Below, piece by piece: positions 11,472-40,820 of a stretch of 64,000 nt of DNA (positions are counted from its first letter, which is position 1; the number at the start of each line of letters is the position of its first letter). The DNA is from Candidatus Lloydbacteria bacterium (GTDB lineage: Bacteria; Patescibacteriota; Minisyncoccia; Phycocordibacterales; UBA6899): contig JAYSTI010000001.1 of assembly GCA_043719805.1 (NCBI GenBank), positions 151,770 through 215,769 of the forward strand. The letters run 5' to 3'. A program made the position numbers and the translations under genes. The notes beneath the pieces were generated by a model. That model was not told where the DNA came from and made no database searches. It saw nothing but the letters and a program-made list of their open reading frames with translations.

Positions 11472-11485
11472 AGATTGTATAACTT

Positions 11486-11618
11486 TCACAAACGGCGAAC
11501 TTCTTTGTTGTGGAGCCTCTCTCACTCAATCAACATATAGGAATATGTCCTCTTCGTTCGCTTCTCCACGCCGCGAATTTCATCTGTTTCTGAACATTCT
11601 GCCGTGGCTAGCATTTTA
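11486..11618 (-). repeat. Family-2 structured leader element, copy A (~135 nt), immediately 5' of the gatB start codon
   Basis: ~70-75% identical to 16145-16285. Ends 12-18 nt before the ATG. Conserved hairpins carry compensatory changes (see findings). The spurious ORF 11522..11944 translates it (..ETDEIRGVEK..KRTYSY..). Confidence 0.65.
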
Positions 11619-11705
11619 GCACATTTGCACACCGGTTGACGTGTTGACAAAGTAACAATTTCTTGTAGTTTGTACGAAGAATCGCTCGGAACACATGGAG
11701 TAAGA

Positions 11706-12173
11706 ATGTCTGATAATCTGAAAATAAGGCTCATGCCACTGCTTGAGCAGGCACATAAGCTGAAGGATGCGGAGGTAACCCTTGAGATATTCGCTGATAA
11801 CGACCCGATGGTTCTCGAGTGGAAGAAGAACTTCGGCGTAGCACTTTCAGCAATAAGCGATGCGCTTCGCGAAGAATTTTTCACCGCAGTCACTTTCAAT
11901 CTTTCTCCATGGTGGCAGAATGTGGTTAGTAGTGGAGGCATCAAGCTTGACTACGACTATTTCGAAGACCCACTCCGTGGTCGTCACCACCACTTCGGCC
12001 TCCACTTTTCGGATTTCGTGAGGAAAAAAAGCAAAACTCCTTTGTATCAATTCGAATTGAGGCGTGTACTTCGAACCATTGCCCTCAACTTGAATGCAAT
12101 CCTAATCGAGCAAGGCGTCCCACTCTTTGTTTTCGTGGAAAAATTGACGCCGGCAGAAACGCGGATGACCTAA
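11706..12173 (+). CDS. hypothetical protein (156 aa)
   Basis: Clean ORF from MSDNLKIRL. Divergent from gatB and followed by a terminator. No recognisable motif. Confidence 0.55.
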   Translation: MSDNLKIRLMPLLEQAHKLKDAEVTLEIFADNDPMVLEWKKNFGVALSAISDALREEFFTAVTFNLSPWWQNVVSSGGIKLDYDYFEDPLRGRHHHFGLHFSDFVRKKSKTPLYQFELRRVLRTIALNLNAILIEQGVPLFVFVEKLTPAETRMT

Positions 12174-12179
12174 GCTTCC

Positions 12180-12207
12180 CAGCCCCACATCGGGGCTTTT
12201 TTATTTT
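12180..12207 (+). terminator. rho-independent terminator (AGCCCC-acat-GGGGCT + U-run)
   Basis: CCCAGCCCCACATCGGGGCTTTTTTATTTT directly after the stop at 12173. Confidence 0.55.
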
Positions 12208-12698
12208 AAGCCACCCAGGACGCACACTGCATGCCCTTCAGGTCTCACGTCACGGTAGACAGTCTCTATTTCTCCATCAGCATCAATGACAAATGTTGAG
12301 CGGTTGATGCCCATGTATTTTTTTCCATACATACTTTTCTCAACCCATACCCCAAATTTTTCTGCAACCTCATGTCCATCATCCGAAAGCAGTGGGAATG
12401 TGATGCTCTCATTTTTGATAAACTTCAAGTGGCTTTCGATCGAGTCGGGGCTAACTCCAAATAGTTTGACACCGGTTTTTTCAAATTTTTCTGTGACTAC
12501 AGAGAACTCATGCGCCTCCGTGGTACAGCCGGGAGTCTGATCCTTAGGATAAAAATAAAGCACGTAGCGAGTACCCAAGAGGCTCGCCGATGAAACTATG
12601 TCTCCAGAGCTCGATGGAAGTGTAAACTCCGGAACCGCTTGTCCGATAAGTAGTGCGACGACTTGTGGCGACATTGCGAGACTGATATCTTCTTGCAT
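12201..12698 (-). CDS. bcp: thiol peroxidase Bcp (peroxiredoxin, AhpC/TSA family)
   Basis: GQAVPEFTLPSSSGDIVS..RYVLYFYPKDQTPGCTTEA is the peroxiredoxin active site. Start trimmed to the MQEDIS/MSPQ region. Confidence 0.85.
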   Translation of the reverse strand: MQEDISLAMSPQVVALLIGQAVPEFTLPSSSGDIVSSASLLGTRYVLYFYPKDQTPGCTTEAHEFSVVTEKFEKTGVKLFGVSPDSIESHLKFIKNESITFPLLSDDGHEVAEKFGVWVEKSMYGKKYMGINRSTFVIDADGEIETVYRDVRPEGHAVCVLGGLK

Positions 12699-12805
12699 AT
12701 TAGCTACTTTATTATTTATAGATCGATAATAACATAATTTTCCGCGCAATTGACATGCACCTCTTTGTGGGTAGAATTCGTGTAGACACAATTCATGGAG
12801 ACATC

Positions 12806-13015
12806 ATGGACGCAGCACTTTTCGCTCAACTTGGCCCTTATGGTGGCATTTTGGCATTGGTACTTACCTTAGCCGTAAAATGGGTTTCGGGAAACAAGAG
12901 TGTAAGAAGACTGAAGAGACTCGAGCAACTTGTCGGCGGCTCTGGTAGTTCAGAGGAAAAACTAACTCAAGTCAAGCTGCGCTTTTTGGTCTGGGGGGAA
13001 GAAGACGGCAAGTAG
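12806..13015 (+). CDS. putative small membrane protein (69 aa, one TM)
   Basis: GGAGA 4 nt upstream of the ATG. TM GGILALVLTLAVKWV. Own terminator downstream. Lies between the convergent/divergent bcp and obg genes. Confidence 0.3.
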   Translation: MDAALFAQLGPYGGILALVLTLAVKWVSGNKSVRRLKRLEQLVGGSGSSEEKLTQVKLRFLVWGEEDGK

Positions 13016-13026
13016 TGGTCAGCACA

Positions 13027-13058
13027 AAGCAGACAAAATGATTCGTCTGTTTTTTTGT
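13027..13058 (+). terminator. rho-independent terminator (GCAGAC-aaaatgattc-GTCTGT + U7)
   Basis: AGCAGACAAAATGATTCGTCTGTTTTTTTGTTTTT. Confidence 0.5.
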
Positions 13059-13153
13059 TTTTAGATCACCCCTTGGCTTGTTTTTTTGAAACATCTGCAC
13101 AAATGCGTAGGCCGTTTGTTGAACAACGGCAAATATGGCGCTCGAGGGAACGC

Positions 13154-14209
13154 TTATTTTATTTTTTTAGATTTTTTTGGAGCTGCAATAATCTTTGGAG
13201 CCTCCACTCTCACGGGTTTTTCTTCTTCAACCTTCTTTTCTTTATCGCGAAGCATTTTCACAAATGCGTCAGCAAAAACTTTTATAGAGGCGTCGTCATA
13301 GATAGACATGAGGTAAACGGGTTTTTTGAGTTTTACCAATTTCTTGACCGCTGCTTTTTGAACCTCCTCGCTCACCATGTCGGTCTTCGTGAGGATAATT
13401 ATCTCGTCCTTCTCACCCAATTCTTTACTATAAGTTTCGAGCTCATTGCGAATCGTTTTGTATGCAGCAAGAACATCTTCATTCTCGAGAGAAACAAGAT
13501 GTGCAATCATTTTGGTGCGGTTGATATGGCGAAGGAATTTATATCCAAGCCCCTTCCCCTCTGACGCGCCCTCGATAAGTCCGGGGATGTCGGCGAGTAT
13601 GAATCCGTGAAATGCACCGAGGCTCGGCTCGAGTGTGGTGAACTCGTATGCACCCACCTTCACGTCGGCATTTGTAAGTACGTTTAAAAGCGAAGACTTC
13701 CCGGCGTTCGGGAACCCCGCAAATCCCACATCAACGAGGAGCTGGAGTTCGATATGATAATCTGCTTCCTCGCAAGGGTACCCCGGGCTCGTTCGGGTCG
13801 GCGCCTGTACAATAGAGCTTTTGTAATGCTCGTTTCCGAATCCTCCGTCTCCACCCTTGAGGAGCAGCAGCGGCTTGTCCTCGGAGAGAACGTGAACCAC
13901 CTTGCCGGTCGTAAGGTTCGTGAGTATTGAGCCGAGTGGGAATTTGAGTGTGAGGTCGTCGCCATTCCTGCCGTGCAAACTATCCTTTTTCCCCGCCTCT
14001 CCGTCTTCAGCGCTGAATTCTGTTTCGTGTCGATATTTGAAGAGAAGCCCCAAGTCGCGGGAGCCGATAACATAGACGGAGCCTCCACGCCCGCCGTCGC
14101 CACCTGATGGACCGGCAAATTCCTTCCCCTTTTCGTGACGAAAACGCTCGACGCCGGGGCCGCCCTTTCCTGCTCTGATGTGTACGTTTAGTTCATCGAC
14201 AAAAGCCAT
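13154..14209 (-). CDS. obg: GTPase Obg/CgtA
   Basis: MAFVDELNVHIRAGKGGPGVERFRHEKGKEFAGPSGGDGGRGGSVY (Obg fold) and GFPNAGKSSLLN G1 motif. Lys-rich C-terminal tail. Confidence 0.9.
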   Translation of the reverse strand: MAFVDELNVHIRAGKGGPGVERFRHEKGKEFAGPSGGDGGRGGSVYVIGSRDLGLLFKYRHETEFSAEDGEAGKKDSLHGRNGDDLTLKFPLGSILTNLTTGKVVHVLSEDKPLLLLKGGDGGFGNEHYKSSIVQAPTRTSPGYPCEEADYHIELQLLVDVGFAGFPNAGKSSLLNVLTNADVKVGAYEFTTLEPSLGAFHGFILADIPGLIEGASEGKGLGYKFLRHINRTKMIAHLVSLENEDVLAAYKTIRNELETYSKELGEKDEIIILTKTDMVSEEVQKAAVKKLVKLKKPVYLMSIYDDASIKVFADAFVKMLRDKEKKVEEEKPVRVEAPKIIAAPKKSKKIK

Positions 14210-14220
14210 GCTGTGTGATG

Positions 14221-15120
14221 CTACGCGAGAAGTGCAAGTTTCGCAAGGGCAAGCGCGCCTTCCCTCGTTTCCGTAACGGCAATGAATCCGCCGTTGTGGC
14301 AAAAGACTGAACCCTCGACTCCCGTCTTTTCTACGAGGTCTTGATCGCGATATCCCCTCCAACTTTCAGGAAGGGGCTTACGATTCGCAAAACCATGCAC
14401 GTCACTGCGAACGCATTCGACTTCCCAATCGGTACCAACGGACTTGGGCTTAACTACGTATAGCGCATCCTTGGTCTTCGAAAGGAAGCCTTGCCATGGA
14501 TATGCGCGATCGAGGAGGACGATGCGCTTATCTTCCGTATTTTCATATGCCAGCTTCACAAACGCAACACCCTCCTCTTCGTCTCGCGCGGAAATAATTT
14601 CTCTTTCAATAATATGGCGCGCCATTGGGAGCAGCTCCATAAAACGCTCATCAAATAAGGGTTCCTCTTTCCACGTTGGTCGCATCTTTACGAGAACACG
14701 ATGAATGAGGAATGGGTGCACATCGGGCCGAGTTGGGGCATAGACCTCTATGCCATTGTCTGCCAGGTCTATGGATGTCACCACCGCTTCATCGATATGG
14801 TCCCAGACGGACTGAGATTGCGTGAGTTCATTTCCGTGATGTTTCCAAACGAGTCCGAGTGCTGAGTATGGCACTCCATTTGCACGAGCTCCTGCCCCAC
14901 CATGCTGGTGGTGGTCATAACGCCCCGTCTTTGGGTCATAGACATTTCCCACATCAAGCACGTAGTCACCTGACTCCCACACCTTCGGATCGCGCGAGCG
15001 GAGTACTTCGGTATTCTCAACTCCATGGATAAGCTGGAGTACGGCAACAGCAAAAAGATCGTCCACGTGAAATGTACCGCTGTGCGTGACTATCCTAATC
15101 TTTTTTTCCTGAGTATCCAT
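14221..15120 (-). CDS. MYG1/UPF0160-family metal-dependent protein hydrolase
   Basis: IVTHSGTFHVDDLFAVAVL matches the UPF0160 H.G.FH.D[DE] signature. Confidence 0.8.
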   Translation of the reverse strand: MDTQEKKIRIVTHSGTFHVDDLFAVAVLQLIHGVENTEVLRSRDPKVWESGDYVLDVGNVYDPKTGRYDHHQHGGAGARANGVPYSALGLVWKHHGNELTQSQSVWDHIDEAVVTSIDLADNGIEVYAPTRPDVHPFLIHRVLVKMRPTWKEEPLFDERFMELLPMARHIIEREIISARDEEEGVAFVKLAYENTEDKRIVLLDRAYPWQGFLSKTKDALYVVKPKSVGTDWEVECVRSDVHGFANRKPLPESWRGYRDQDLVEKTGVEGSVFCHNGGFIAVTETREGALALAKLALLA

Positions 15121-15146
15121 GTGTTCCGTATGATCTTATAAAAATC

Positions 15147-15536
15147 TTAATCTCTGTCACTTCCCCATTTGCCGTCGCTGCCGAGCACAATACGATTGAG
15201 TACGGTTGAAATGACCGAAACGATGAGTGCACCGAGCACCGCCCACCAGAATGTATCCACCTTGAATCCGTCGACGAATTTTGCCGCTATCCAGAACGTG
15301 AAGCCGTTCACAATAAATGAAAAGAGTCCGAGCGTGAGGAGTGTGATGGGAAATGAAAGTATCTTGAGTATCGGCCGAAGTGTCATGTTCAGTATCCCGA
15401 GGAAAAGCGCGGCCCATAATGCCGTCTGATAATTGGGGACATGTATGCCATGCAGATAGTTACCCACAAGGAATATTGCGAGCGCGTTGATGAGCCATTT
15501 CACAAGCAGTGTAAGCATATAATGAGAGTATAGCAC
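15147..15536 (-). CDS. DUF360/phage-holin-4-like small membrane protein (4 TM)
   Basis: LINALAIFLVGNYLHGIHV...FSFIVNGFTFWIAAKF hydropathy and motif pattern. Confidence 0.65.
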   Translation of the reverse strand: MLYSHYMLTLLVKWLINALAIFLVGNYLHGIHVPNYQTALWAALFLGILNMTLRPILKILSFPITLLTLGLFSFIVNGFTFWIAAKFVDGFKVDTFWWAVLGALIVSVISTVLNRIVLGSDGKWGSDRD

Positions 15537-29270: not shown

Positions 29271-29361
29271 TATTACCCCAAGGTAAGGCCATCTTTCGTC
29301 AGACTAGCAACAGTTCACGTAATCAGCAAGCAGAGAGTGCGGTAGATTACTTCTCTATATA

Positions 29362-29919
29362 TTATGTGTTCTGTTTCGCCAAAAAATCCGAAAGCAGCTT
29401 GAGGGCTGGCTTTCGCATCGAGGTGGCATGCTTCTCGTCGCCGGACATTTCTGCCCAAGTTTGCTCCGTGTGACCGTTGGGAATGAACACGGGATCCCAT
29501 CCGAATTTTGTTTCTCCGCGCGGGTTCGTGGAAATATGTCCCTCGACTCGCCCGTGGAAAAACTGCACCTCTCCCCCGTCGCAATATCCGTACATAACTT
29601 CCGCCACCGCATCTCGGTCGGGATATCCATCAAGCAATTTGCATAATCCCTCATTGCCCAACGTCTCCAAAAACCACTTAATGAGTGGGCCGGGCAATCG
29701 CTTGAGAGCAATAAATGTCACCGATACATCTTCCACGAGTACAGGAGTACCGAGCATCACATATGCGCTCTTCGCCTTTGCCTCGACGACCTCGCGGAGG
29801 TCGAGTGACTGGATCTCGGGGATGTCGAGTTTTTTGTGCACGACGGCCAGATGAAAATATTCCGAAAGATACTTCGCCTTCGCTGAATTTCCCGTGATGA
29901 ATGTGAGCTCCTGCTTCAT
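29362..29919 (-). CDS. rdgB: non-canonical purine NTP pyrophosphatase (RdgB/Ham1/ITPase)
   Basis: ELTFITGNSAKAKYL ... FGWDPVFIP Ham1 motifs. Start trimmed to MKQELTF. Confidence 0.85.
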   Translation of the reverse strand: MKQELTFITGNSAKAKYLSEYFHLAVVHKKLDIPEIQSLDLREVVEAKAKSAYVMLGTPVLVEDVSVTFIALKRLPGPLIKWFLETLGNEGLCKLLDGYPDRDAVAEVMYGYCDGGEVQFFHGRVEGHISTNPRGETKFGWDPVFIPNGHTEQTWAEMSGDEKHATSMRKPALKLLSDFLAKQNT

Positions 29920-29980
29920 TGGGCCATCATAACGAAAAATTTGTAAATAAAAAAGCAACGCTTATGCGCCGCTTTGAATT

Positions 29981-30169
29981 CTAGACCTTTTCACCTTGCG
30001 GTGCTTCTTCGCGCGGAGGTTCACTCGCTGAGGTGGCCGGTGGACGTATGTCGCATGTCGGGTTTTGCGTCAGACTGTTTGCCCACTCCACCAGTCTTCG
30101 GAGTTCGTCGATATCTGCGCGCGTCGCTTCGATCTTGCCGCCTTGGATACCGCTCGCAAGCTCGTTCAT
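29981..30169 (-). CDS. putative 62-aa protein translationally coupled (ATGA) to the upstream membrane-protein gene
   Basis: Start ATG overlaps the upstream TGA. AAGGAG abuts the start. No domain recognised. Confidence 0.3.
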   Translation of the reverse strand: MNELASGIQGGKIEATRADIDELRRLVEWANSLTQNPTCDIRPPATSASEPPREEAPQGEKV

Positions 30170-30888
30170 CTCCTTAGAAAAGAGGTGAAATCACGCTTCG
30201 CGCCAAGAGTAATGAGCGAGAGCGCTACTCTTCCGAGCACATCTCTTGCGGGAACTTTTTTGAAGAACTGAGAGTCTTCAATCAAGCTCACTCCGAAAAG
30301 GACGACTGAACCAATGAGTGCAGTAAGCAAATTTTCTGAAGTGTAAACGCGAATACCGAGCCACGACAATGGGAACGTTGCCATGATGGGGATGATTCCC
30401 CACCACATCCACATCCGCATCACGTACTGATGAACGCGTTTTTCGGGCGTGACATGCCAACACCAGCGCGTAAACAGCGAGAGGTCGCCTAAGTTCTTCT
30501 TCCGCTCTTCACCGACGCCAGGCCAGCTCCTTTTTTTGACGAGCGTTTTGTGGTGCACCAGCCTTAGCCCGGCGTAGAGCGCAACCGCAAAAATATACAC
30601 GTACACATGCGCTGACGCCACGATCTCAATCTGCTTTCCCCCCGCAGGATAGAATCCCTGAAAATACGTGGCCAATGGCCAGGCATCAAGGAGTTTCTCG
30701 AATGCATGACTGAGTTTCTCGTTGAGCCGAATTGTGTTGAGTATGGTTTCTGCAACAAATGTGGAGATGAGAAACATCGTTGTCCAAAATGCATTGCACT
30801 TCGCAAGGATATAGAACGTGCGTAGTGAGAATTCAAGTTCTTCTCGTGTCTCGATTTCGCCGCTTCCACCATTGATCGGTTCTGTCAT
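30166..30888 (-). CDS. polytopic membrane protein (240 aa), unknown function
   Basis: AAGGAG 6 nt upstream of the ATG at 30888. 5-6 TM helices. Confidence 0.6.
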   Translation of the reverse strand: MTEPINGGSGEIETREELEFSLRTFYILAKCNAFWTTMFLISTFVAETILNTIRLNEKLSHAFEKLLDAWPLATYFQGFYPAGGKQIEIVASAHVYVYIFAVALYAGLRLVHHKTLVKKRSWPGVGEERKKNLGDLSLFTRWCWHVTPEKRVHQYVMRMWMWWGIIPIMATFPLSWLGIRVYTSENLLTALIGSVVLFGVSLIEDSQFFKKVPARDVLGRVALSLITLGAKRDFTSFLRR

Positions 30889-30996
30889 GACAACTCCTTT
30901 TGAACAGCTGAAATCTTTATAAATCATTTCAGCAAAAATGTCAACAAAAAAGCCGAGACACAAGGTCTCGGCCAAACGCACAAATGCACAACATGT

Positions 30997-32553
30997 TCAG
31001 TGCAGGAGTTTCGCCCACCCCGCTTGGTCTCTTGGATCAACCCAAATGACCTCCTGAGTTGCCGCATCCACGAGTGCGACCTCGGGAACACTTCCTGTAA
31101 CGAACGACTCCTTCTTGGCGTCCTTGTAAGTGACAACGGTTGTCAGCCACAGGAGATGCCTTTTCCCGTCCTTGCCGTAACGGACGTAGGGGCGTTCCTC
31201 GACGGGAGCCATGGTTCCCCACATATAACTTTTCTTCGAATCACGCACGAGTGCGGGAACCATCGAGACACCCATCAGACTCTCGCCTTTCGCCTCGTGA
31301 TGATACACGAGCACGCGCGATGTTCCGTCTGCCGGAATGAGCACGCTTGCAACAAGTCCGTGCTTCCCTGCCAGATATGGCTCGAGGGAAAAGTAGTGGT
31401 ATAGCATCCCTGGCATGCCGCTCGTTTCCTTGAAGAAGGTCGCGTACGGCTGCTGGTTCATGCTTTCCTTCGAGTCAGGAATGCGCACGTCTCCCTGGTG
31501 CCACAACGGGGCTGGCGCGAGGAATCCGTTCATGAAACGCAGACTCTCGGCGGCATAGCGCGAGACCCGTTCAGGAAGAATGTTCTGTCCGCGCAGATAC
31601 GGAAACTCTTGAATCCGCTCCGGACTGATCCAGCTTCCGGCGCCAAACACCACGCGTGTCACGAATGATTCAAGCGTCGGCTTGGGTTCCTGGCGGACAA
31701 TGAGGACGCCTCCAAACTCCGGATACGGGAAGAAAATCCCCCGCCACCGCAGAAGCGATATCACTTCCACCATTTCACCGGCGTCGTCGCGTATGTACCG
31801 CACATTGCTTGGCTCATAGTTCATGAACTGAGCAAGACTGAATGCGCGCACTGCGGCGATACTCGCCTTACTGGAAAGCCAGAGTCCTTCACCAACGCTG
31901 AAGCGCACGACGTTCTTGCTCTCGGGAGTGAACTGCGGCGACGGGTCGGTACCCGAAACACTGATCACTTCATCGACCGTTCCGAAGATCTTGTCGAGCG
32001 CCATTTTCGGCTCGACACCCATCGTCCACTGAAACTCGATCTTCCCCGTTGTCTTGTTTCGCATCCAGACAAAGTCCGGTGGAGCGGGTTGGCGCGAGTC
32101 GCCGGTGACCCCCTGCGCAAGTCCGTGTACCGACGCGAGCGGTTGGATACGCTCGTGGTCAGTTTCGGGAAGCTTGTCGATCGCTTGCACGTCGATGGCG
32201 TTGTATCTCACCCACAGCGCAACGTATTCGTAGGCCGCGACGCAACCTGCGACAAGGAGAAGCGCCGCGAGCATGCTTGCGATACGCTTCCACCAATGCG
32301 CGCTGCGCGAGATGACAAAGAAGAACGAGAGGATGCCGATAGACACCGCAATCGGTGCGAAATACCTCCGCACAATCACAACGAAGGGCTGCCACTCTTC
32401 ACGAAAGAGCACCGCTCCGACGAGAAGTACGGCAAGCAGAAGTGTGCCGAGCACCTTATGCCGGCCGACAAATCCCGAAATGGCCTTCCCGATGTTGCCG
32501 AAAAAAATGCCGAATCCGGAAGTTCTTTCCGGCACAGAAACAATGGTGGTCAT
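30997..32553 (-). CDS. membrane protein with 3-4 N-terminal TM helices and a ~380-aa extracytoplasmic domain
   Basis: GGAGGT SD 6 nt upstream of the ATG at 32553. 4-nt gap to the upstream gene. Confidence 0.6.
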   Translation of the reverse strand: MTTIVSVPERTSGFGIFFGNIGKAISGFVGRHKVLGTLLLAVLLVGAVLFREEWQPFVVIVRRYFAPIAVSIGILSFFFVISRSAHWWKRIASMLAALLLVAGCVAAYEYVALWVRYNAIDVQAIDKLPETDHERIQPLASVHGLAQGVTGDSRQPAPPDFVWMRNKTTGKIEFQWTMGVEPKMALDKIFGTVDEVISVSGTDPSPQFTPESKNVVRFSVGEGLWLSSKASIAAVRAFSLAQFMNYEPSNVRYIRDDAGEMVEVISLLRWRGIFFPYPEFGGVLIVRQEPKPTLESFVTRVVFGAGSWISPERIQEFPYLRGQNILPERVSRYAAESLRFMNGFLAPAPLWHQGDVRIPDSKESMNQQPYATFFKETSGMPGMLYHYFSLEPYLAGKHGLVASVLIPADGTSRVLVYHHEAKGESLMGVSMVPALVRDSKKSYMWGTMAPVEERPYVRYGKDGKRHLLWLTTVVTYKDAKKESFVTGSVPEVALVDAATQEVIWVDPRDQAGWAKLLH

Positions 32554-32557
32554 TCGA

Positions 32558-33193
32558 TTACCTCCGACGTTGGAATGCGTCAAGCGCATCCGCGAGTGAC
32601 GTTTTGGTTGCGACCTTCACGACCGGCGGCGAATCTTCAGACGCGTCAACGCCGTCCACCGGAGCGACAGGCTCCGTGGCCACCGTTTTCACAGACCTCA
32701 ATTCCGCAACCTTCTCGACTGCGCCGTCGGCCACCCTTGACAAGGCAACCTTCGTTTGTTCGACGCCCCTCTTGATGGCACCACCTGCGGCGCCTGAGAG
32801 ATTGAGCTTACCTTCTTCGAGTCCGTCCATCACGTCACACACCTTGTCCACCACCGAGTCGGATTTCTTTCCTTCTCGCATGGCAAACCCGGTGAGCAAG
32901 AAGCCCAAGAACAGCCCGATGAAAACGAGCGGTGACTTCATGACGAGTTCGATCGGGTCATGAATGTAGTAGGAGAGGAGAAAGCAAGACATGATCGTCA
33001 GTACGAACGACGGAAGGATTCTCGCTTTTGCCTTTCGGCCGACGATGAATCCCCTCTCGATCTCACTCGACAGTCGTTCTTTGTGCCACAGATTGTAGCC
33101 ACGCCGGTACACCGGCGCGCCGAACCGCTTGTCGACGAAATAGAGAAGCGAGGCGATGAGCGCGAACGAGAGCATATACAGCAAAGCATCCAT
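32558..33193 (-). CDS. membrane protein (4 TM) with a disordered acidic/Val-rich C-terminal tail
   Basis: Hydropathy only. Confidence 0.55.
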   Translation of the reverse strand: MDALLYMLSFALIASLLYFVDKRFGAPVYRRGYNLWHKERLSSEIERGFIVGRKAKARILPSFVLTIMSCFLLSYYIHDPIELVMKSPLVFIGLFLGFLLTGFAMREGKKSDSVVDKVCDVMDGLEEGKLNLSGAAGGAIKRGVEQTKVALSRVADGAVEKVAELRSVKTVATEPVAPVDGVDASEDSPPVVKVATKTSLADALDAFQRRR

Positions 33194-33400
33194 TTGGATC
33201 TCCTGGTTAAAACACGAAATGTCGAAAAACTATTCACATAGTCCTTCAGCTTTATAGCAAACAACATGAATTTTGTCAACAGTCAAAATCACTAGTGTTA
33301 AAGGCGTTTTGGGCGATTTCTGGTATAAAAAACCCACCTAAAAGGTGGGTCATACAAACTGTCAAACTTGCCCCGTGGTCACTGTGCCACGGGGACTTTC

Positions 33401-35362
33401 TCACTTCGACAAACGATGCGCCTGGAAGCGGCTTTCCGCTTCTTCGCGCACTTCGAGGTCGAGCACCATCGCTTCGATCTTTCTGTTGCGGTCCTTGTCC
33501 GCAATCTCGACCATGTTGTCGAGGTAACGGAGCGACTCCTGCAGGCGAATCTCTGCAAACGAAAGGCTGCGCATGTTCCCCTTCATGACCTCGACGAGCA
33601 TTCCCTTCTTTTGATCGTAGGGCTGCTTGAAGAAGACGAGTGGGTCGGCCATCCAGTCCGCGGGAAAGTCGAAGTCGAGGACCCGACCAATGACTGCCGT
33701 CTGGATATTGCGCACATCGCGGGAAGAGAACATCGGATAGACCGCCTGCACTGCGGCAAACAACGCACCAAAGAACCGGTGCTCGTTCACGTCATACTGA
33801 CTCCGCGTCCGCTCGAAGATCGCCTTGATGCGCGCTTCTTTCGGTTCGCGATAGCTGTCCGCGAACTGGTCGAGCCGTGCCACGCGCTCCTGGTCGGACA
33901 TGTAGGTGTACCCCTTCGGATCCACCATCGCGATGAACGACGGGTCGATGTCGCGCAACCTGCGGTACCCAAGATGGTCTTGGTCCATGAGGTCATTCTC
34001 GGTCCGCGCCCCGTCGATAACGAAACGCGACTGAATGCGCGAGAGTATCGCCTTGTCGACCTGTTCGGGGATGTTCGTGTAGAAGTCCCAAAGCGTGTTG
34101 CCGTGGTTGATAGCGTACGCCCCTTCAGTATGACGAAGAATGACGCCGATCACTTCACGGACGCCGGCAGACACCCCTTGGCGTGTGCGCTCCTCGACGA
34201 TATTTTCCGCATCGTCCGTCGTCGCATAGATGATCTTCGACGGATCACGAAGGGCCTGCATATACGACAGTGCCCGCTCCGCTGATCCGCCCTGATAGGT
34301 CGACACGATGTTGTCGGGGAACGGGTGAAAGAGGAAGGGAATTCCCAGCCACTTGCACATTTCCTCGAGTTTCGTCGCGGTTGCAGCTATCTGCATGCTC
34401 TTGCCGGTACCAGGAACGCCGTGACCCATGCGCATGGAGGCCAGTCCCCCGAGCTCATGCATCGGATTCTTCTTTGTGGCCGGGTCGTAGCAAAGCAACC
34501 GCTCCACCATACGCCCGGCTTCATGTTTCGCCTGCCTGTTGCCGACGATGTCTTTGAAGTACACCTTGTTGAACTCAACCGACACCACAGAACGGTCGGC
34601 GAATTCGTGGAACCCGTCGACAATGAACTCCGCGTCGTCGAGCTTGTACTTCCGGTCAATGAACGGCTCGAGGAAAGTGAGTCCGACTTCTCTCATCTTG
34701 ATCGCCGCGATGACGTGGCGGAAATAGAGAAGCGCAAACTTCACGAACTCGTCGTCACTTTCGACCTTGCCTTCCACCTGCACGTCTTTACCGAAGTAGA
34801 AGAGCGTCGAACGGATGGCCTCTTGAGTGTTCGCAAAATGCAGCGCAATCGGCTCATCGACCGTCATGACGACGTTCGACACCTGCTCCGTCCGATAGGC
34901 GGCGAGGTCCCACACAACATACGAGGCAAGCGCAAAGGTAGTTAGCGATGCTCGCGTACGCACCTTTGCCTGCATTTCCGGCTGTTGAGCCGTGGTCAGT
35001 TTTTGCGTGCGATTCAGGTCGAGCAGGACATCGAGTCCCGAGGACTTCGTGTAGAGCTCTTCGAGATGAAGCCCGATAGTGAGCCCCTTCCGGATCGTCT
35101 GCAGCACGTGCATGATGACCTCGGTCAACATGAGCTGATCTTTGCTCTCCTCATGACCAACGTCGATGAGAGAGATGGCGGTCGTTTGCGACGAAAGCCG
35201 TGGCGTGGTCGGGATGAGTGCACTCGGCCGAAGCTTATCCGTTGCGGATGAAACCTGGGCCTTGTCCGCCCACTCGACCTTCGCCATGTAGGCATCGGCC
35301 TGCTTCAGCCACCTTACCCGATCACTCTTTGTGATCGGAATGAAATTTCCTGATTGATCCAT
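33401..35362 (-). CDS. classical-AAA-clade ATPase with a novel ~290-aa N-terminal domain and ~130-aa C-terminal extension
   Basis: VYFKDIVGNRQAKHEAGRMVERLL upstream of the Walker A GHGVPGTGKS. Walker-B-like KIIYATTDDAENIV. Sensor-1 and second-region-of-homology AINHGNTLWDFYTNIPEQVDKAILSRIQSRFVI. The spacing is typical of Cdc48/Vps4/FtsH-type AAA. Confidence 0.75.
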   Translation of the reverse strand: MDQSGNFIPITKSDRVRWLKQADAYMAKVEWADKAQVSSATDKLRPSALIPTTPRLSSQTTAISLIDVGHEESKDQLMLTEVIMHVLQTIRKGLTIGLHLEELYTKSSGLDVLLDLNRTQKLTTAQQPEMQAKVRTRASLTTFALASYVVWDLAAYRTEQVSNVVMTVDEPIALHFANTQEAIRSTLFYFGKDVQVEGKVESDDEFVKFALLYFRHVIAAIKMREVGLTFLEPFIDRKYKLDDAEFIVDGFHEFADRSVVSVEFNKVYFKDIVGNRQAKHEAGRMVERLLCYDPATKKNPMHELGGLASMRMGHGVPGTGKSMQIAATATKLEEMCKWLGIPFLFHPFPDNIVSTYQGGSAERALSYMQALRDPSKIIYATTDDAENIVEERTRQGVSAGVREVIGVILRHTEGAYAINHGNTLWDFYTNIPEQVDKAILSRIQSRFVIDGARTENDLMDQDHLGYRRLRDIDPSFIAMVDPKGYTYMSDQERVARLDQFADSYREPKEARIKAIFERTRSQYDVNEHRFFGALFAAVQAVYPMFSSRDVRNIQTAVIGRVLDFDFPADWMADPLVFFKQPYDQKKGMLVEVMKGNMRSLSFAEIRLQESLRYLDNMVEIADKDRNRKIEAMVLDLEVREEAESRFQAHRLSK

Positions 35363-35442
35363 ACTGTTTCCTTCTGTGTGTTTGAGGTAGAAAAAGGGCG
35401 GCCCAGAGAGCCGCCCATGATTGACCTTCTTTTCGGGTCAGC

Positions 35443-36852
35443 TTAGGAGCCCGTACCACTCACATCCGAAGGACGATGTTCCTCCACCGTTCCTCCGCGA
35501 TTCTTCGTCTTCAGAATTGCTGCTTCGAAGCGCTCCCTGAGGGCAGCAATTCCCTCGTATTGGATGTCTTTCACATCCTGCATCTTGGCGAGTCTTGCAT
35601 CGTGTTGTTCGATCATGTTCAGGGCCGAGGTCACCGAAGCAACCAACGTCTGAGCAGCTTTTTCTGCTCCATCCTGAGCCAACACCGCGCCGACAGAGTC
35701 GATCTTGCTGCTGGCATCAATACTCGCCATGCCCTTCATCTGCTCGAGTCGGCTGTCAAAAGCCGCACGCCAGGAATCCGAGTTTGCACGCAAAGATGCC
35801 AAGTTGATGCGATGCACATCGTACTGCGCCTGAATGGTGTCCCGGTGGGTCTCGAGTTCCGGGGTCGCACGCTCCTTCGCTTGAAAGATCGCGAGTGCCT
35901 CGTTCCGTCTCCCTTGCAATTCCTGCACCTGGTCAACTTGTTCCGAGATCGACTGTTCGAGTTCGATTCGTTCAGCTGAGCCGGCATCAAGGGTCACCAC
36001 CTGCTCTTGGTCTTGCGCGAGCTTCTGATTCGCAGCAAGGATCAGCTTGTCGAGCGCTTCCATCGCTGCGGCCGCGGCCGTCTTGTCTTCATAGGTGACG
36101 CGCAGCTGTTCCACGACTTGTTCGTAGTTTGCACGCGCACCATCTCGGCTCGTTTCCAGAATCTTGCATGTGTCCTCGATGCGCTTTGTGAAGCGGTCAT
36201 AGTGCACGGAAAAGTCTGCGGAAAGAAGTCGCCTCTCTTGGTCGATCTTCGCCTGTTCTTTTGCCTGAACGACACCAAGTTTTGCCGATGCGATGTCTGC
36301 CTCTGCCTTGACGAGCTCCGCGTGAGCCGCTTCGGTGCGCGTCTTCTTGAAGAACCACGCATTTTGCAACTTGGCCAGCTCGGCCTCTGCAAGTTTGGCC
36401 TTTTCAACGCAAAGATCAACCAACGCGGTTGACGCACTGATGAGTGCTTCTTCGTTCGGTGAAAGCGTCGCAAACTCATCAAACTGACCGCCGATGTTTG
36501 CGAGATCATCGTCGAGCGCCTTCATCATTTCGGCGAGCACCTTCTGATCTTCGGGAATGCTTTCCCGAATTTCATCGATCTGCGCGCCCAAAATTTTCTT
36601 GGCGAGTGCTTGGCGTTCTTCGGCCGTCAGCTTACCCGACCTTGCGAGCTTCTCAGCGGTTTGTACTGCGAATTCGACGCGGTCGTCCACTTTTCCCACT
36701 GCAACTGCGGCGCGGGCTTTTCGAGCTTGGCGCTGCTGTTGGCCGGGAACGAGGTCGGCAATCATGCCTCGTGTCGACCCTTCCTGGGGCGTATCGAGAA
36801 GGGGGGCCGGCGCCTTGAGGTCGGTAACGACTGCTTTGCGAGGTGTAACCAT
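35443..36852 (-). CDS. long alpha-helical coiled-coil protein (~470 aa, A/E/K/Q/L-rich heptads), unknown function
   Basis: AGGAGA SD 8 nt upstream of the ATG at 36852. No enzymatic motif. 80-bp gap to the AAA gene on the same strand. Confidence 0.65.
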   Translation of the reverse strand: MVTPRKAVVTDLKAPAPLLDTPQEGSTRGMIADLVPGQQQRQARKARAAVAVGKVDDRVEFAVQTAEKLARSGKLTAEERQALAKKILGAQIDEIRESIPEDQKVLAEMMKALDDDLANIGGQFDEFATLSPNEEALISASTALVDLCVEKAKLAEAELAKLQNAWFFKKTRTEAAHAELVKAEADIASAKLGVVQAKEQAKIDQERRLLSADFSVHYDRFTKRIEDTCKILETSRDGARANYEQVVEQLRVTYEDKTAAAAAMEALDKLILAANQKLAQDQEQVVTLDAGSAERIELEQSISEQVDQVQELQGRRNEALAIFQAKERATPELETHRDTIQAQYDVHRINLASLRANSDSWRAAFDSRLEQMKGMASIDASSKIDSVGAVLAQDGAEKAAQTLVASVTSALNMIEQHDARLAKMQDVKDIQYEGIAALRERFEAAILKTKNRGGTVEEHRPSDVSGTGS

Positions 36853-36978
36853 TTTCGCTATCTCCTGAGTTGAGTGCTTGCGCACAAAAAAAGAAAAACT
36901 TCACCAAACGTAGGCGGTTTTCACTGCCTACTATTATGATGACAACGATCTCTCGTCCGAGGCTCAAACTACACTCTT

Positions 36979-36993
36979 TTGACAAATTGTCAA
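36979..36993. promoter_or_regulatory. perfect dyad TTGACAA-a-TTGTCAA ~120 nt upstream of the coiled-coil gene start; candidate operator or -35-containing site
   Basis: 7-bp arms, read by eye. Confidence 0.3.
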
Positions 36994-37158
36994 GCTGAGT
37001 GTCATTAAAATTGACGGCTCTACAAAGGCATAATTTGATGCACTCATGCCTCTTCCAAAAACGTTTCCGAATAAATGGAGCAATGGGCGGCAGACGACAA
37101 AAAACCACAATGTGGTAAAAACCCGCGTGAGTGAGAAAAAACAAACACAAACGACGAC

Positions 37159-37593
37159 CTAGTCCGATATTTCTCCTTCCAACAACCGCACGAGATGGTA
37201 ACAAGTGGGCCAATCATAACGTTCAAAAAACGCGAGCATCATTTCACATAGGGCGATCTTTTGCTCAAGTTCTGACGAGCGCCTTGCATCAACGGACACA
37301 TCGGTGCATTCTTGGCGCCATCCACGGATGAGCGACGCGAGTTCAGCACCGGCGCGCTCATGGGAGCCATTGAACATGTTGTGGAGTTCGGAAACGACCA
37401 GCCTCTTTGGGAACGCCGCAAGTTCCTCGATAAGCGGAAGGTCTTCGGGCTTGATATTTCTCCTCGTGACGAACTCCAAAAACTTTGGCCGCAGAAGAAC
37501 AGACTCGACCCTTTCAGTCGGCACAATACTCTCTAAGCTTTCATTTTTTTCACCGTGTTCCATTGTTCTATTTTCCCCGTTTTCTATATTCAT
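37159..37593 (-). CDS. hypothetical protein (144 aa)
   Basis: Clean non-overlapping ORF. No motif recognised. Confidence 0.45.
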   Translation of the reverse strand: MNIENGENRTMEHGEKNESLESIVPTERVESVLLRPKFLEFVTRRNIKPEDLPLIEELAAFPKRLVVSELHNMFNGSHERAGAELASLIRGWRQECTDVSVDARRSSELEQKIALCEMMLAFFERYDWPTCYHLVRLLEGEISD

Positions 37594-37653
37594 TCTTTAT
37601 CAGCAAATATGCACTTTCGGTTCCTGGCTCCTTCCCCTCTGTACTTCTTCTCA

Positions 37654-37956
37654 TCAACTTTGACGGATACTTTTTTGTACAAGAGCGAGCTTTTTTCGGA
37701 TTATCTTTTCGGTATCAAAACCCAAAAGGACCGACATTCCGAGCGCGTAAATGAATACATCAGCAAGTTCTTTGGCGATTGCGTCTTTCTTTTCTTTACT
37801 CCCCTTCACCTCTTCGAGAGAGAGATTTTCCCACTGAAATATTTCGAGAAGTTCCGCCCCTTCTATCATGATGGACTTCGCAAGGTCAGCAGTCCGCAGG
37901 TTATGCCAATTACGACTCTTCAGGTGCGTATAAATTTTCTCTTCCAGTGGCTTCAT
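37654..37956 (-). CDS. MazG-like nucleotide pyrophosphohydrolase (small, ~100 aa)
   Basis: LEEKIYTHLKSRNW..TADLAKSIMIEGAELLEIFQW..ELADVFIYAL matches MazG/YpjD-type motifs (E..ELLE...W and EL.DV). Confidence 0.65.
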   Translation of the reverse strand: MKPLEEKIYTHLKSRNWHNLRTADLAKSIMIEGAELLEIFQWENLSLEEVKGSKEKKDAIAKELADVFIYALGMSVLLGFDTEKIIRKKLALVQKSIRQS

Positions 37957-37962
37957 AAATAA

Positions 37963-38232
37963 CTATTCAAGTGAAATAATTTGTAAGCCTTTTTCCCGCA
38001 ATGCATCTTCCCCTCCGCTACCTGCAAAATTCTTTAATTCATCGATGGTAAGCTTTCCCACGTAGGTCACGCGCTTTTCGATACTTCGCCCGGTATACGT
38101 ATTTGTTTCCGGGTCCCACTCTTCAAGCAAGAGCATGTCCCCCTCTTCGATATCAAAATCGTTCACACGTAATTCATATTTTTTCTTTCCTGACACAACC
38201 GCATCAAAATATTTCGGCCAGAGTTTTTTCAT
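37963..38232 (-). CDS. DUF3850/ASCH-like small protein
   Basis: MKKLWPKYFDAVVSGKKKYELRVNDFDIEEGDMLLL resembles the DUF3850 N-terminus (P.YF..V.SG.KT.E.R.NDRD...GD.L.L). Confidence 0.55.
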   Translation of the reverse strand: MKKLWPKYFDAVVSGKKKYELRVNDFDIEEGDMLLLEEWDPETNTYTGRSIEKRVTYVGKLTIDELKNFAGSGGEDALREKGLQIISLE

Positions 38233-38321
38233 TATTGTTGCCATACCATATGTGACTATCAATTAAACCCCCTAAAACATTTCGCTACGAAATGTTCGGG
38301 CGATCATTCGCTTCGAATGAT

Positions 38322-40820
38322 TTAGCCGTGACACTTCTTGAATTTTTTCCCTGAGCCGCAATAGCATGGGTCATTGCGTCCAATGACTTCGCCCTCCGCA
38401 TTTTTAGGACCCGTAGAAACTGTATGTATGTGGGTCTCTCCGGTATTTCCTCCTCCGGCAAGAGTCATCTGTGATTGCACCTTCTTGAGTTCTGCCTCAG
38501 CGGCGATGAATGCATCAACCTGAATACGCGGAATCATTTCGAGGATGTGCATGGCGATAGAGTCTTCCATTTCGCGATAGAGGCGGAGTCCCTCGCGCTT
38601 GTATTCCACCAAGGGGTCGCGCTGTCCGTATGCGCGTAGATTGACCGAGCTTCGTGCGTAGTCCATAAGTTCCAAGTGATCAACCCAGAACATGTCATTT
38701 GTCTGAAGCGCAAGGCGACGCACCACGTCATAAAATGCCTCCTCGCCGATGGCAGCAATCTTTTCTGCTCGCGCTGCTTCAATTCCCTCTCCGAATTCGC
38801 CGGCGTTCTTCACCAGGTCATCAAAATATTCCTGCACCTCGGCGCGGGCACCAAGCAGGAGCTTCCTCCTGCGCGCGTACATCGTCTTCCTATGAATGTT
38901 GATGATGTTGTCGTACTGCAACACGTGCTTACGCGCGTCAAAGTTGAATCCCTCAATCTTTGTCTGCGCATTCTCAAGCGCCCTGGTGATCATCTTCTGC
39001 TCGATAGGCTCGTCCTCTGGAATACCGAAACGTCCCATCATGTTCTTGATGACGTCCGAAGCAAAAATGCGCATGAGAGAATCCTCAAGCGACACGTAGA
39101 ACTGTGTTTCACCGGGGTCACCCTGGCGACCCGAACGCCCGCGGAGCTGATTGTCGATACGACGTGCATCGTGTCGTTCGGTACCAAGTACAAAAAGCCC
39201 GCCAACCGCCTTCACCTCTTCGTATTCTTCATTCGTCGACGGATTTCCGCCCAATTTAATGTCGACTCCACGCCCTGCCATGTTGGTCGCAATCACGACT
39301 GAGCCCTTTCGCCCGGCCTGAGCAATTATCTCTCCTTCGCGTTCATGGTTCTTTGCATTCAAGACCTCGTGTGGCACTCCCTCGCGCGAGAGGAACGAGG
39401 ATAGCAATTCGTTTTTCTCAATAGAGACTGTGCCAATGAGCACCGGCTGATTCTTTGCGTGCACCTCTTTTACGCGACGGGCGATGGCGGTGAATTTACC
39501 CACTTCCGTTTGGAATATTTGATCAAGCTGATCGAGGCGCGCAGAAGGCCGATGCGGTGGTACAGGAATAACATCCAATCCGTAGATCTTCAAAAATTCC
39601 TCTACTGAAGTTAGCGCAGTGCCGGTCATTCCCGAAAGCTTTCCGTAGAGTTTGAAATAATTCTGAAAAGTAATCGACGCCATCGTGCGGGACTCCTGCT
39701 CGACGCGGACTCCTTCTTTTGCTTCTATCGCCTGATGCAATCCCTCTGACCAACGACGCCCTGGCTGAAGTCGCCCGGTAAATTCATCAACGATGACCAC
39801 GCCGTCATTCTGCACAACATATTCACGGTCGCGAATGAAAAGCGCCTTTGCGCGAACTGCAGTTTCGAGGTGATGCACATACTTGATACCCTTCTCGGTA
39901 TAAATGTTATCAATACCCAGCAGTTGCTCCGCCTTATTAATGCCGGCTTCCGTTATTTGCGTCGCCTTCAGTTTCTCGTCTATCGTATAGTCTTCAATCT
40001 CCACCAACTTGGAAGCAATGGTCGCAAATGTGCCGTACAAACTCTCTGAATCCTGCGCAGGCGCTGAAATAATGAGCGGTGTTCGCGCCTCGTCTATTAA
40101 TATAGAGTCAATTTCGTCGACAATTGCATAGTTGTGCTCCCGCTGGCGAAGCTCGGTCGGATTGTATGAAATGTTGTCACGCAAGTAGTCAAATCCGAAT
40201 TCATTGTTCGTACCGTATGTGACGTCCGCCCGATATGCCTCGGGGCGCGTACAGGCGCTGAGGAACTCGAAGAAGACACGGAAAGAGCCAACATCGTCAC
40301 GGTCCTCGTCGCGGGCAACCTGCGTGGGGTCATAAAGATAGGAGGACTCATGATTGATGACTCCGACAGAGAGTCCGAGGAAAGAATATATCTGCCCCAT
40401 CCACACCGCATCGCGACGTGAAAGATAATCATTCACCGTCACTACGTGTACACCCTTACCGGAAAGTGCGTTCAGATAGACCGGCAATGTTGCGACAAGC
40501 GTCTTCCCTTCTCCGGTGCGCATTTCAGGAATACCACCTCGATGAAGAATCATCCCTCCTATGAGCTGGACATCGTAATGCCGCTGACCTAGCGTGCGGA
40601 GTGATGCTTCACGCACGAGTGCAAACGCCTCCGGCAGGAGTGCGTCGAGCGTCTCGCCTTCACCAAGTCTTTTTTTTAATACTGCAGTTCGCTCCGGAAA
40701 TTCTCGGTCGGCAAGAAGCTTTATTTCGGGTTCAAAATCGTTCACTAGAAGCACGAGCGGGGCGAGTTTCTTGAGCTCCTTTTGTGCCTCGCTGGGAAAA
40801 ATATTGTTAAAAAGTTTCAT
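38322..40820 (-). CDS. secA: preprotein translocase ATPase SecA
   Basis: 832 aa. DEAD motor motifs. C-terminal zinc finger CYCGSGKKFKKCHG. Confidence 0.95.
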   Translation of the reverse strand: MKLFNNIFPSEAQKELKKLAPLVLLVNDFEPEIKLLADREFPERTAVLKKRLGEGETLDALLPEAFALVREASLRTLGQRHYDVQLIGGMILHRGGIPEMRTGEGKTLVATLPVYLNALSGKGVHVVTVNDYLSRRDAVWMGQIYSFLGLSVGVINHESSYLYDPTQVARDEDRDDVGSFRVFFEFLSACTRPEAYRADVTYGTNNEFGFDYLRDNISYNPTELRQREHNYAIVDEIDSILIDEARTPLIISAPAQDSESLYGTFATIASKLVEIEDYTIDEKLKATQITEAGINKAEQLLGIDNIYTEKGIKYVHHLETAVRAKALFIRDREYVVQNDGVVIVDEFTGRLQPGRRWSEGLHQAIEAKEGVRVEQESRTMASITFQNYFKLYGKLSGMTGTALTSVEEFLKIYGLDVIPVPPHRPSARLDQLDQIFQTEVGKFTAIARRVKEVHAKNQPVLIGTVSIEKNELLSSFLSREGVPHEVLNAKNHEREGEIIAQAGRKGSVVIATNMAGRGVDIKLGGNPSTNEEYEEVKAVGGLFVLGTERHDARRIDNQLRGRSGRQGDPGETQFYVSLEDSLMRIFASDVIKNMMGRFGIPEDEPIEQKMITRALENAQTKIEGFNFDARKHVLQYDNIINIHRKTMYARRRKLLLGARAEVQEYFDDLVKNAGEFGEGIEAARAEKIAAIGEEAFYDVVRRLALQTNDMFWVDHLELMDYARSSVNLRAYGQRDPLVEYKREGLRLYREMEDSIAMHILEMIPRIQVDAFIAAEAELKKVQSQMTLAGGGNTGETHIHTVSTGPKNAEGEVIGRNDPCYCGSGKKFKKCHG

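Follow-up and report, generated by a model that had tools for sequence, protein, structure and literature searches.

A candidate reduced form of a widespread bacterial cassette that pairs a classical AAA ATPase with a helical protein and two membrane proteins

The gene string and its relatives

The subject of this study is a string of genes in a 64,000-nucleotide (nt) stretch of a Candidatus Lloydbacteria genome, hereafter called the window, in which a classical AAA ATPase is encoded beside a long helical protein and a pair of membrane proteins. The studied block lies on the minus strand, between the genes for SecA (38322-40820, minus strand) and the Ham1/RdgB pyrophosphatase (29362-29919, minus strand), and all of the open reading frames (ORFs) between these two flanks, which we call g1, cc, AAA, g4, g5, g6, and g7, are on the minus strand as well. 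An initial annotation, made from the sequence itself, had described a co-oriented string at this place and proposed that it encodes an undescribed membrane-associated module, and the co-orientation is borne out. Independent gene calls in two assemblies of the same organism give products of 134, 469, 653, 211, 518, 240, and 62 amino acids (aa), in the order from g1 to g7; the first of these, g1, is a 144-aa ORF that is called as 134 aa.

Four of these genes, cc, AAA, g4, and g5, form a unit that spans 30997-36852 on the minus strand. The guanine-plus-cytosine (GC) content of this unit is 56.1% against 49.6% in the rest of the window, which is the top value of any 5.9-kb stretch in the window. 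The GC content is raised solely in cc, AAA, g4, and g5 (56-57% each, with 62-74% at third codon positions), and the compositional island therefore consists of these four genes; g1 (50.6%) and g6 (49.4%) are at the background level. The elevation had been put at 58-60% against about 50% for the whole block; the island itself stands, but the values are lower and limited to the four genes. Long opposite-strand ORFs are dense across the block, as the initial annotation had also noticed. Megablast of the block against E. coli genomes matched nothing, and searches of all of the window proteins and of homologues from three phyla against Pfam, NCBIfam, PADLOC, and PHROGs recognised only AAA and DUF6638, a family that is encoded in many of the related loci.

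A total of 82 related loci were analysed with tblastn and family profiles. In the full cassette the genes lie on one strand in the order cc-X-AAA-DUF6638-g4-g5, and the usual sizes of the products are about 440 aa (cc), 350-390 aa (X), 415 aa (DUF6638), 180-210 aa (g4), and 530-565 aa (g5). AAA is present in all 82 loci, cc and X in 79 each, DUF6638 in 78, and g4 and g5 in 72 each. These loci belong to the Flavobacteriaceae and other Bacteroidota, the Verrucomicrobiota, Desulfobacterota, Trueperaceae, Bdellovibrionota, and Gammaproteobacteria, and to many Patescibacteria (Lloyd-, Morani-, Sungi-, Buchanan-, Yonath-, and Saccharibacteria), and the gene order is common to at least seven phyla. 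Conservation of the coiled-coil and AAA genes as neighbours had been proposed as a test of the module; the pair recurs with its order unchanged in practically all of the related loci examined, and also in Vibrio and Sinorhizobium. In a scan of one genome per species, AAA was present in at least 547 species, and the protein has over 1000 full-length relatives (about 650 aa) with 43-50% identity. The hosts include cultivable Flavobacteriaceae (Maribacter, Cellulophaga, Polaribacter, and Tenacibaculum), Vibrio, Sinorhizobium, and the genome-reduced Patescibacteria. The genes around the cassette vary from one phylum to the next and have mostly metabolic or housekeeping roles; within the Flavobacteriaceae the cassette keeps a stable syntenic position across many genera, with an ABC-F gene upstream in 38 loci.

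The window has four of the six cassette genes in the canonical order, and the same reduced sub-type, cc-AAA-g4-g5, is found in L003, L004, L019, L088, L089, and L090, all from the Paceibacteria/Lloydbacteria clade. Profiles of X and DUF6638 had no match in the six frames of the 64-kb window, and both are also absent from the six related loci of this clade. Sets of cc-X-AAA-DUF6638 that lack g4 and g5 occur in the Trueperaceae, Desulfonema, Vibrio parahaemolyticus, V. vulnificus, Sinorhizobium, and Rhizobium. Because some clades lack X and DUF6638 and others lack g4 and g5, it is the combination of cc and AAA that is constant, and these two genes are the invariant core of the cassette. X and DUF6638 gave a probability of only 1.5% when compared with each other by hhalign and are thus not paralogues, and sequence and profile searches of the PDB with these two proteins found no relatives.

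The window thus carries a reduced version of a six-gene cassette, and the membership first proposed has to be redrawn: cc, AAA, g4, and g5 belong to it, but the 144-aa ORF and the micro-ORF do not. No homologue of the 144-aa ORF (g1) lies beside any related cassette, and its GC content is that of the background.

The cassette also shows local variants. In the proteobacterial form, represented by L086 (Vibrio parahaemolyticus, 6427-11976) and L087 (Sinorhizobium meliloti Ak57, 6462-15326), cc has about 360 aa and is followed by X, an AAA protein of about 635 aa (29% identity), and DUF6638. The S. meliloti Ak57 set has an ISRm16 transposase and an endonuclease gene between AAA and DUF6638, and after it comes the gene of a DUF2333 protein without relation to g5 (hhalign, 0.6%). 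In the Flavobacteriaceae, a NUDIX gene is found between AAA and DUF6638 in 34 loci (L022, 12682-13266, and 33 others), and proteins of the 23S-rRNA-intervening-sequence family and other small variable ORFs lie between the core genes. A small DUF3592 membrane protein is encoded between g4 and g5 in Maribacter (L043, 13914-14321) and also near the Vibrio locus (L086, 15571-16137).

The four proteins

AAA (33401-35362, minus strand) encodes a divergent classical AAA ATPase of 653 aa, as had been predicted. The protein consists of an N-region (residues 1-270), the AAA module (about 270-450), a lid with a helical extension (455-597), and a 50-residue C-terminal helix (602-652), and it matches the Pfam family AAA (PF00004) at 33.3 bits, against a cut-off of 21.2, by residues 314-449 alone. 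The Walker A motif, GVPGTGKS (315-322), is invariant in 86 sequences, and pore loop 1, STYQGGSAE at 354-362, follows the aromatic family pattern ST[YF]QGGSAE. Sensor 1 (T429 and N430) and the two arginines of the second region of homology (SRH), R442 and R446, are conserved in the same 86 sequences. In other words, the P-loop is intact, pore loop 1 is aromatic, sensor 1 and the two SRH arginines are in place, and the protein is a classical AAA ATPase with a single module. A Walker B motif usually reads DE-x-D. Here D383, D384, A, and E386 come after the strand IIYATT, with Asp at the position of the catalytic Glu; because it is invariant in the 86 members, DD-A-E is a signature of the family.

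An AlphaFold2 (AF2) model of AAA, with a mean predicted local distance difference test score (pLDDT) of 87.6, has an N-region of about 270 aa composed of small beta/alpha elements and a helical bundle, which is followed by one AAA module, the lid, more helices, and the 50-residue C-terminal helix. The closest structures of this model fall in the classical AAA clade, among which Vps4 is no closer than Rix7, Mpa, FtsHi, Trip13, or Msp1. The family profile matches PDB entries weakly (E about 0.008), at the cores of Rpt4, Vps4, Cdc48, spastin, Pch2, and Msp1. The initial annotation had raised the possibility of an MIT-like N-domain; the Pfam search gave no signal for MIT, and none for CDC48_N or Vps4_C. 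The NCBIfam model for CdvC gives the Maribacter homologue 21.6 bits against a cut-off of 650, and it does not match the window protein at all. There is likewise no NCBIfam equivalog, M41 protease domain, transmembrane segment, or second AAA module. An assignment to the housekeeping families FtsH or CbbX-SpoVK-EccA was considered and rejected, as the protein has no transmembrane anchor, no M41 domain, and no match to a CbbX/SpoVK-type profile; the Pfam and NCBIfam results place AAA in none of these families.

The helical protein cc (35443-36852, minus strand) is a cytoplasmic protein of 469 aa that is rich in Ala, Glu, and Gln, has no transmembrane segment, and is the fastest-evolving of the core components. 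Its start is the ATG at 36852, with AGGAGA 8 nt upstream, and an identical 469-aa protein exists in the database. Alanine makes up 16% of the residues, and there are few Pro or Gly residues beyond about residue 40. The heptad periodicity is significant only at about residues 85-147, and cc is therefore not the "pure" coiled coil that had been described, although the length of about 470 aa given for it was right. Members of the family are about 430-500 aa long, with 17-28% identity across phyla in the family alignment (A2), and a word-based homologue search found nine close relatives. The family has an acidic (I/L)xDL motif at the N-terminus, of the D(F)DLL type, directly after Met1, and the C-terminus ends in SSFFxY or DDLLS, depending on the clade; a conserved motif at the C-terminus is present in most clades, although not in that of the window.

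[quoted passage not shown] Neither cc nor its homologues (three were tested) match any Pfam or NCBIfam family, including Snf7 and PspA_IM30, and the TelA profile (PF05816) gave no match to cc at E values up to 0.1-1. The cc profile matches only generic coiled coils in the PDB (E of 0.007 or higher), and hhalign gave a probability of 0.4% against a provisional sequence of E. coli PspA.

Of the membrane pair, g4 (32558-33193, minus strand) encodes 211 aa with three hydrophobic segments, one fewer than the four that had been counted earlier, and with a cytoplasmic tail of about 100 aa. In the window this tail ends in the conserved peptide ...LADALDAFQRRR, and elsewhere it ends, for example, in DPKKLFDRYTKR or KSARERLKDKGLL. 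The motif is kept at the C-terminus across phyla, behind a disordered, acidic, Pro-rich linker of low complexity, and it is the g4 profile that identified the gene in the 72 loci mentioned above. The second gene, g5 (30997-32553, minus strand), starts with the ATG at 32553, 4 nt past the g4 stop codon, and encodes 518 aa. Its AF2 model (pLDDT, 92.9; predicted template modelling score, pTM, 0.89) has three transmembrane helices followed by an alpha+beta domain of about 400 aa, which agrees with the membrane protein with a large ecto-domain in the initial annotation. A fold search found no known fold for this domain, and g5 matched neither PDB sequences and profiles nor channel-like families. 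The g5 family is small and sharply bounded, with 306 clusters at E values of up to 1e-3 among 1.84 billion representatives. In three database proteins (P0312, P0344, and P0347; 720-832 aa) g4 and g5 are fused into one polypeptide, and the two are therefore functionally linked. Other relatives of g5 have C- or N-terminal extensions (P0263, 757 aa; P0264, 696 aa).

It should be mentioned that a viral protein in BFVD, A0A6G5YLZ4 (588 aa), matches the whole g5 model (Foldseek E, 5e-16; TM-score, 0.53; 13% identity); it may come from a mis-binned bacterial contig or be a genuine viral copy. Searches of GenBank phages with g5 and AAA by tblastn found none, and a scan of IMG/VR returned only an unrelated AAA protein.

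Transcription signals and the neighbouring genes

Upstream of cc lies a promoter-like sequence, TTGACA-N16-TAGTTT (36966-36993, minus strand), whose -35 hexamer forms one of the two arms of the dyad TTGACAATTTGTCAA. A dyad about 120 nt upstream of the coiled-coil gene had been pointed out before, and it is confirmed: TTGACAAATTGTCAA occupies 36979-36993 and precedes the cc ATG by 127 nt, and the same dyad stands in the corresponding position, 122 nt upstream of cc, in L003, which is from another species. The cc proteins of the window and of L003 are 68% identical. The two DNA sequences are conserved from the dyad onward through a leader of about 110 nt (36853-36993 in the window, 103-238 in L003), and the sequence farther upstream is not conserved. 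The leader (36853-36965, minus strand) contains the hairpin UAGGCAGUGAAAACCGCCUA (36911-36930) and the Shine-Dalgarno sequence AGGAGA, and in the window-L003 alignment the pairing of the hairpin is kept through a change from A-U to G-C. The leader folds with -31.3 kcal/mol (z = -1.8) and matches no Rfam family. It may serve as a regulatory leader or as an operator.

Between cc and AAA there is a G+C-rich hairpin followed by a T-run (35396-35416, minus strand), which is conserved with compensatory changes in all six of the Paceibacteria-clade loci. There is no space for a promoter between this hairpin and AAA, because only about 25 nt are left before the AAA start. We infer that the hairpin is a read-through attenuator that sets cc above AAA in abundance. 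A terminator-like hairpin after AAA (33331-33351, minus strand) is kept in L003, L088, and L090, and it accounts for the sole match of an Rfam scan of 29300-38400, a sub-threshold anti-hemB look-alike at 33324-33395. It is followed by a promoter-like sequence before g4-g5, TTGACA-17-TATAAA (33251-33279, minus strand), and a similar TTGACA-17-TA(T/G)... sequence is found in L003, L088, and L090. In the window, the g4-g5 unit ends with a hairpin resembling an intrinsic terminator (30952-30973, minus strand).

Beyond this terminator lies g6/g7 (29981-30944, minus strand), which encodes about four transmembrane segments and has a TTGACA-17-TATAAA promoter of its own (30916-30944). The initial annotation had treated it as a six-transmembrane protein and an independent, ATGA-coupled gene of 62 aa. 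The true start of g6 (30166-30888, minus strand; 240 aa) is the ATG at 30888, and g7 (29981-30169, minus strand) does overlap it by ATGA, behind AAGGAG, but the 62-aa product is the C-terminal tail of g6. We rejected g7 as an independent coupled gene, as it is the product of a frameshift: g6 and g7 form a single 303-aa ORF in L090 (80% and 75% identity) and a single frame in L004, and in a DNA alignment of the junction (30166-30175) 1 nt is deleted from the window sequence, CTTTT-CTAAGGAGATGA against CTTTTGCGAAAGAGATGA in the relatives. Because this deletion splits the gene, an internal Met codon has become the ATGA restart. The split is present in two independent read sets (L083 and L084). 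The Shine-Dalgarno sequence before the restart ATG has improved in the window, to AAGGAG against AAAGAG in L090, which could indicate that the gene is expressed, and tolerated, in two pieces.

Five of six members of the clade have a g6-family gene next to the cassette, also where their flanks are not alike: in the window, L003, L089, and L090 it comes after g5, in L004 it is found upstream of cc, and L088 has none. Its membership in the cassette is uncertain because its GC content is at the background level, and it may be a clade-specific accessory gene.

Among the other neighbours, an ASCH/DUF3850 gene and a MazG-like gene (37654-37956 and 37963-38232) flank the cassette on one side, and Ham1 flanks it on the other. 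Nucleotide "house-cleaning" genes thus recur beside or inside the cassette, namely at the window flanks and as the NUDIX insert of the Flavobacteriaceae, which is either a coincidence or a functional hint.

Interpretation and comparison with known systems

We interpret the block as a horizontally acquired, reduced four-gene form of a widespread, undescribed cassette, in which the AAA protein disassembles a cc assembly at the membrane; we give this reading a probability of about 45%. Among the papers searched, none mentions DUF6638/PF20343 or the database accessions of the genes from Vibrio and Sinorhizobium. In comparative-genomic surveys of the phage shock protein (PSP) and ESCRT systems, bacterial AAA proteins are described in other contexts and not in this cassette; the bacterial Vps4-like genes of the PSP paper, which have a tetratricopeptide-repeat (TPR)/six-transmembrane partner, and the operons that combine PspA with a double AAA protein are different systems. 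Because neither the literature nor these surveys mention it, the cassette counts as an undescribed system, and the earlier proposal of an undescribed membrane-associated module is supported.

In the mechanism that we propose, g4 and g5 would form a complex in the cytoplasmic membrane, and the g5 ectodomain would read or act on the envelope. The cc protein would be made in excess over AAA by way of the read-through terminator and would build up a helical assembly at the membrane's inner face. Both the tethered peptide at the C-terminus of g4 and the motifs at the ends of cc may dock onto the cytoplasmic machinery, most likely at the N-region of AAA with its approximately 270 aa, and a hexameric AAA would then thread cc from one of its ends, or the g4 tail, through its pore, by which the assembly would be disassembled or reset. 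In the full cassette, X and DUF6638 would be extra cytoplasmic subunits, and the clade of the window would manage without both.

Several points weigh against this interpretation. The clade of the window lacks X and DUF6638, two subunits that are otherwise near-universal, and the link to the membrane is not universal either, because g4 and g5 are missing in the Trueperaceae, Desulfonema, Vibrio, and Sinorhizobium. As a consequence of the DD-x-E form of the Walker B motif, the turnover of ATP may be slow, regulated, or absent. The heptads of cc are strong only in residues 85-147, and its polymerisation is putative. The large domain of g5, which is on one side of the membrane, is predicted to be outside by the positive-inside rule only. 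Finally, it is purely by reasoning that the motifs of cc and g4 are placed on AAA, and we infer the mechanism as a whole from anatomy and context alone.

An alternative is that the cassette serves in anti-phage defence or abortive infection, with the membrane pair as the sensor or effector, AAA as the switch, and cc as the regulator. An ATPase together with membrane proteins is found in many defence systems, and a sporadic taxonomic spread with clear horizontal transfer (the GC island and the very different genomic contexts) would suit such a role, as would the NUDIX gene inserted in the Flavobacteriaceae cassettes and the one viral protein that shares the g5 fold (E, 5e-16). However, PADLOC (PADLOC-DB 2.0) matches none of the seven window proteins and PHROGs none of the components, and in the flanks of 20 non-flavobacterial cassettes (148 proteins) each defence model matched one protein only, with no enrichment. 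The neighbours are mostly metabolic or housekeeping genes, and the stable synteny in the Flavobacteriaceae, with ABC-F upstream in 38 loci, is unlike that of strain-variable defence islands; moreover, the cassette was not found in GenBank phages or IMG/VR, and it is retained in Patescibacteria genomes of about 1 Mb. We therefore consider a role in defence improbable. Much the same low estimate applies to a translocation or extraction machine, in which AAA would move a substrate through or out of g4-g5, in the manner of Msp1/ATAD1, Bcs1, or EccA-assisted secretion, with cc as the adaptor or cargo. The two multi-transmembrane partners, one of them with a large outside domain, and the variable small genes of some cassettes, as possible cargo, would fit this idea, but g4 and g5 have three transmembrane segments each and match no channel-like family, and no gene for a signal-peptide-bearing or secreted cargo is conserved. 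In addition, complete cc-X-AAA-DUF6638 sets exist without g4 and g5, so that the ATPase has a task for which no membrane partner is needed.

A true, divergent bacterial ESCRT-III/Vps4 or PspA-type system, related to these by descent, is less likely still. It would explain the helical partner encoded upstream of the ATPase, and the tethered terminal peptide motifs recall the docking of MIT-interacting motifs (MIMs) on MIT domains; against this, cc is about twice as long as ESCRT-III or PspA and shows no match to Snf7, PspA_IM30, or TelA in Pfam or to their kind among the PDB profiles, with 0.4% against PspA in hhalign, while AAA has no MIT or Vps4_C domain and is structurally no nearer to Vps4 than to Rix7, Mpa, FtsHi, Trip13, or Msp1. 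The last alternative, an ordinary housekeeping AAA protein (FtsH, CbbX/SpoVK, or Cdc48-like) that stands beside unrelated genes by chance, we regard as highly improbable. The window genes are indeed separated by terminator-like hairpins and have separate promoters, and g1, perhaps also g6/g7, are unrelated neighbours; yet the same order of four to six genes recurs in more than 70 loci of several phyla with unrelated flanks, a conservation of neighbourhood that refutes this view. The absence of an NCBIfam equivalog, M41 protease, transmembrane segment, and second AAA module in the AAA protein, and the existence of g4-g5 fusions, speak against it as well.

The disassembly of a cc assembly by AAA can be carried further, to a phylum-spanning envelope system in which AAA cyclically disassembles a cc scaffold at the cytoplasmic membrane and the machinery is recruited, by way of tethered peptide motifs, by the membrane complex, whose large ectodomain has a new fold, and which would be a functional analogue of ESCRT-III/Vps4. 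We regard this extension as doubtful, although less so than any of the alternatives above. Such an analogue might have arisen independently or have diverged past recognition, with X and DUF6638 joining in the full version, and both of these statements share the same doubt. The ESCRT-III/Vps4 "logic" of the initial annotation thus holds as a possible analogy, but not as a demonstrated relationship.

As for its significance, for five of the six protein families of the cassette there is neither an annotation nor a solved relative nor any literature, and a dedicated classical AAA motor is here strictly linked to a helical partner and usually also to a membrane pair. The system could reveal a new principle of membrane remodelling, envelope surveillance, or transport. 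Because the hosts include cultivable Flavobacteriaceae, Vibrio, and Sinorhizobium, it is directly open to genetics in model organisms. In the Patescibacteria it is among the few multi-gene machines that were evidently acquired, and then kept, in a genome of about 1 Mb.

Among the closest known systems are the gene neighbourhoods of the Pfam family DUF6638 (PF20343): the AAA, cc, g4, and g5 genes of the window are orthologues of the genes found around DUF6638 in 78 of the 82 loci, whereas the window itself has no DUF6638 gene and no X gene; DUF6638 itself is uncharacterised. In comparison with Msp1/ATAD1, FtsH/YME1, Rix7/NVL, Mpa/ARC, and bacterial Trip13, only about 200-260 residues align, and the N-region of about 270 aa and the helical C-terminal extension of about 200 aa, including the 50-residue terminal helix, are unmatched; the cassette AAA has no transmembrane anchor, protease domain, or HORMA partner. 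PspA/Vipp1 (IM30), with its anchors PspB/C or LiaI, also combines a cytoplasmic helical protein with small multi-transmembrane proteins, possibly in a logic of envelope stress. However, cc has no similarity to PspA_IM30, the ATPase is of the classical AAA unfoldase type and not of the NtrC type of PspF, and the large g5 ectodomain has no counterpart in the PSP system.

A further comparison is with the Vps4/CdvC and ESCRT-III/CdvB of archaea and eukaryotes. A 2025 review states that a Vps4-like ATPase is apparently absent in bacteria (PMC7619361), and bacteria are held to lack a Vps4-type ATPase that acts on a membrane-associated helical polymer (PMC7619361; PMC10936438). The cassette AAA differs from Vps4/CdvC in that it has no MIT domain, Vps4 beta-domain, or Vps4_C and has DD, not DE, in Walker B; cc, with about 440-470 aa against about 200-260 aa in ESCRT-III, has no detectable similarity to Snf7, PspA, or Vipp1; and X, DUF6638, g4, and g5 have no ESCRT counterpart. 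The cassette is also bacterial. At the level of sequence, no homology to ESCRT-III/Vps4 is detectable outside the ATPase module. On the other hand, both systems have a single-module classical AAA protein with an aromatic pore loop and the SRH arginines, and in both the AAA gene adjoins the gene of a helical protein in a membrane context. Both also have partners that carry short terminal peptide motifs on flexible tails, and in both the presumed substrate is probably produced at a higher level than the ATPase.

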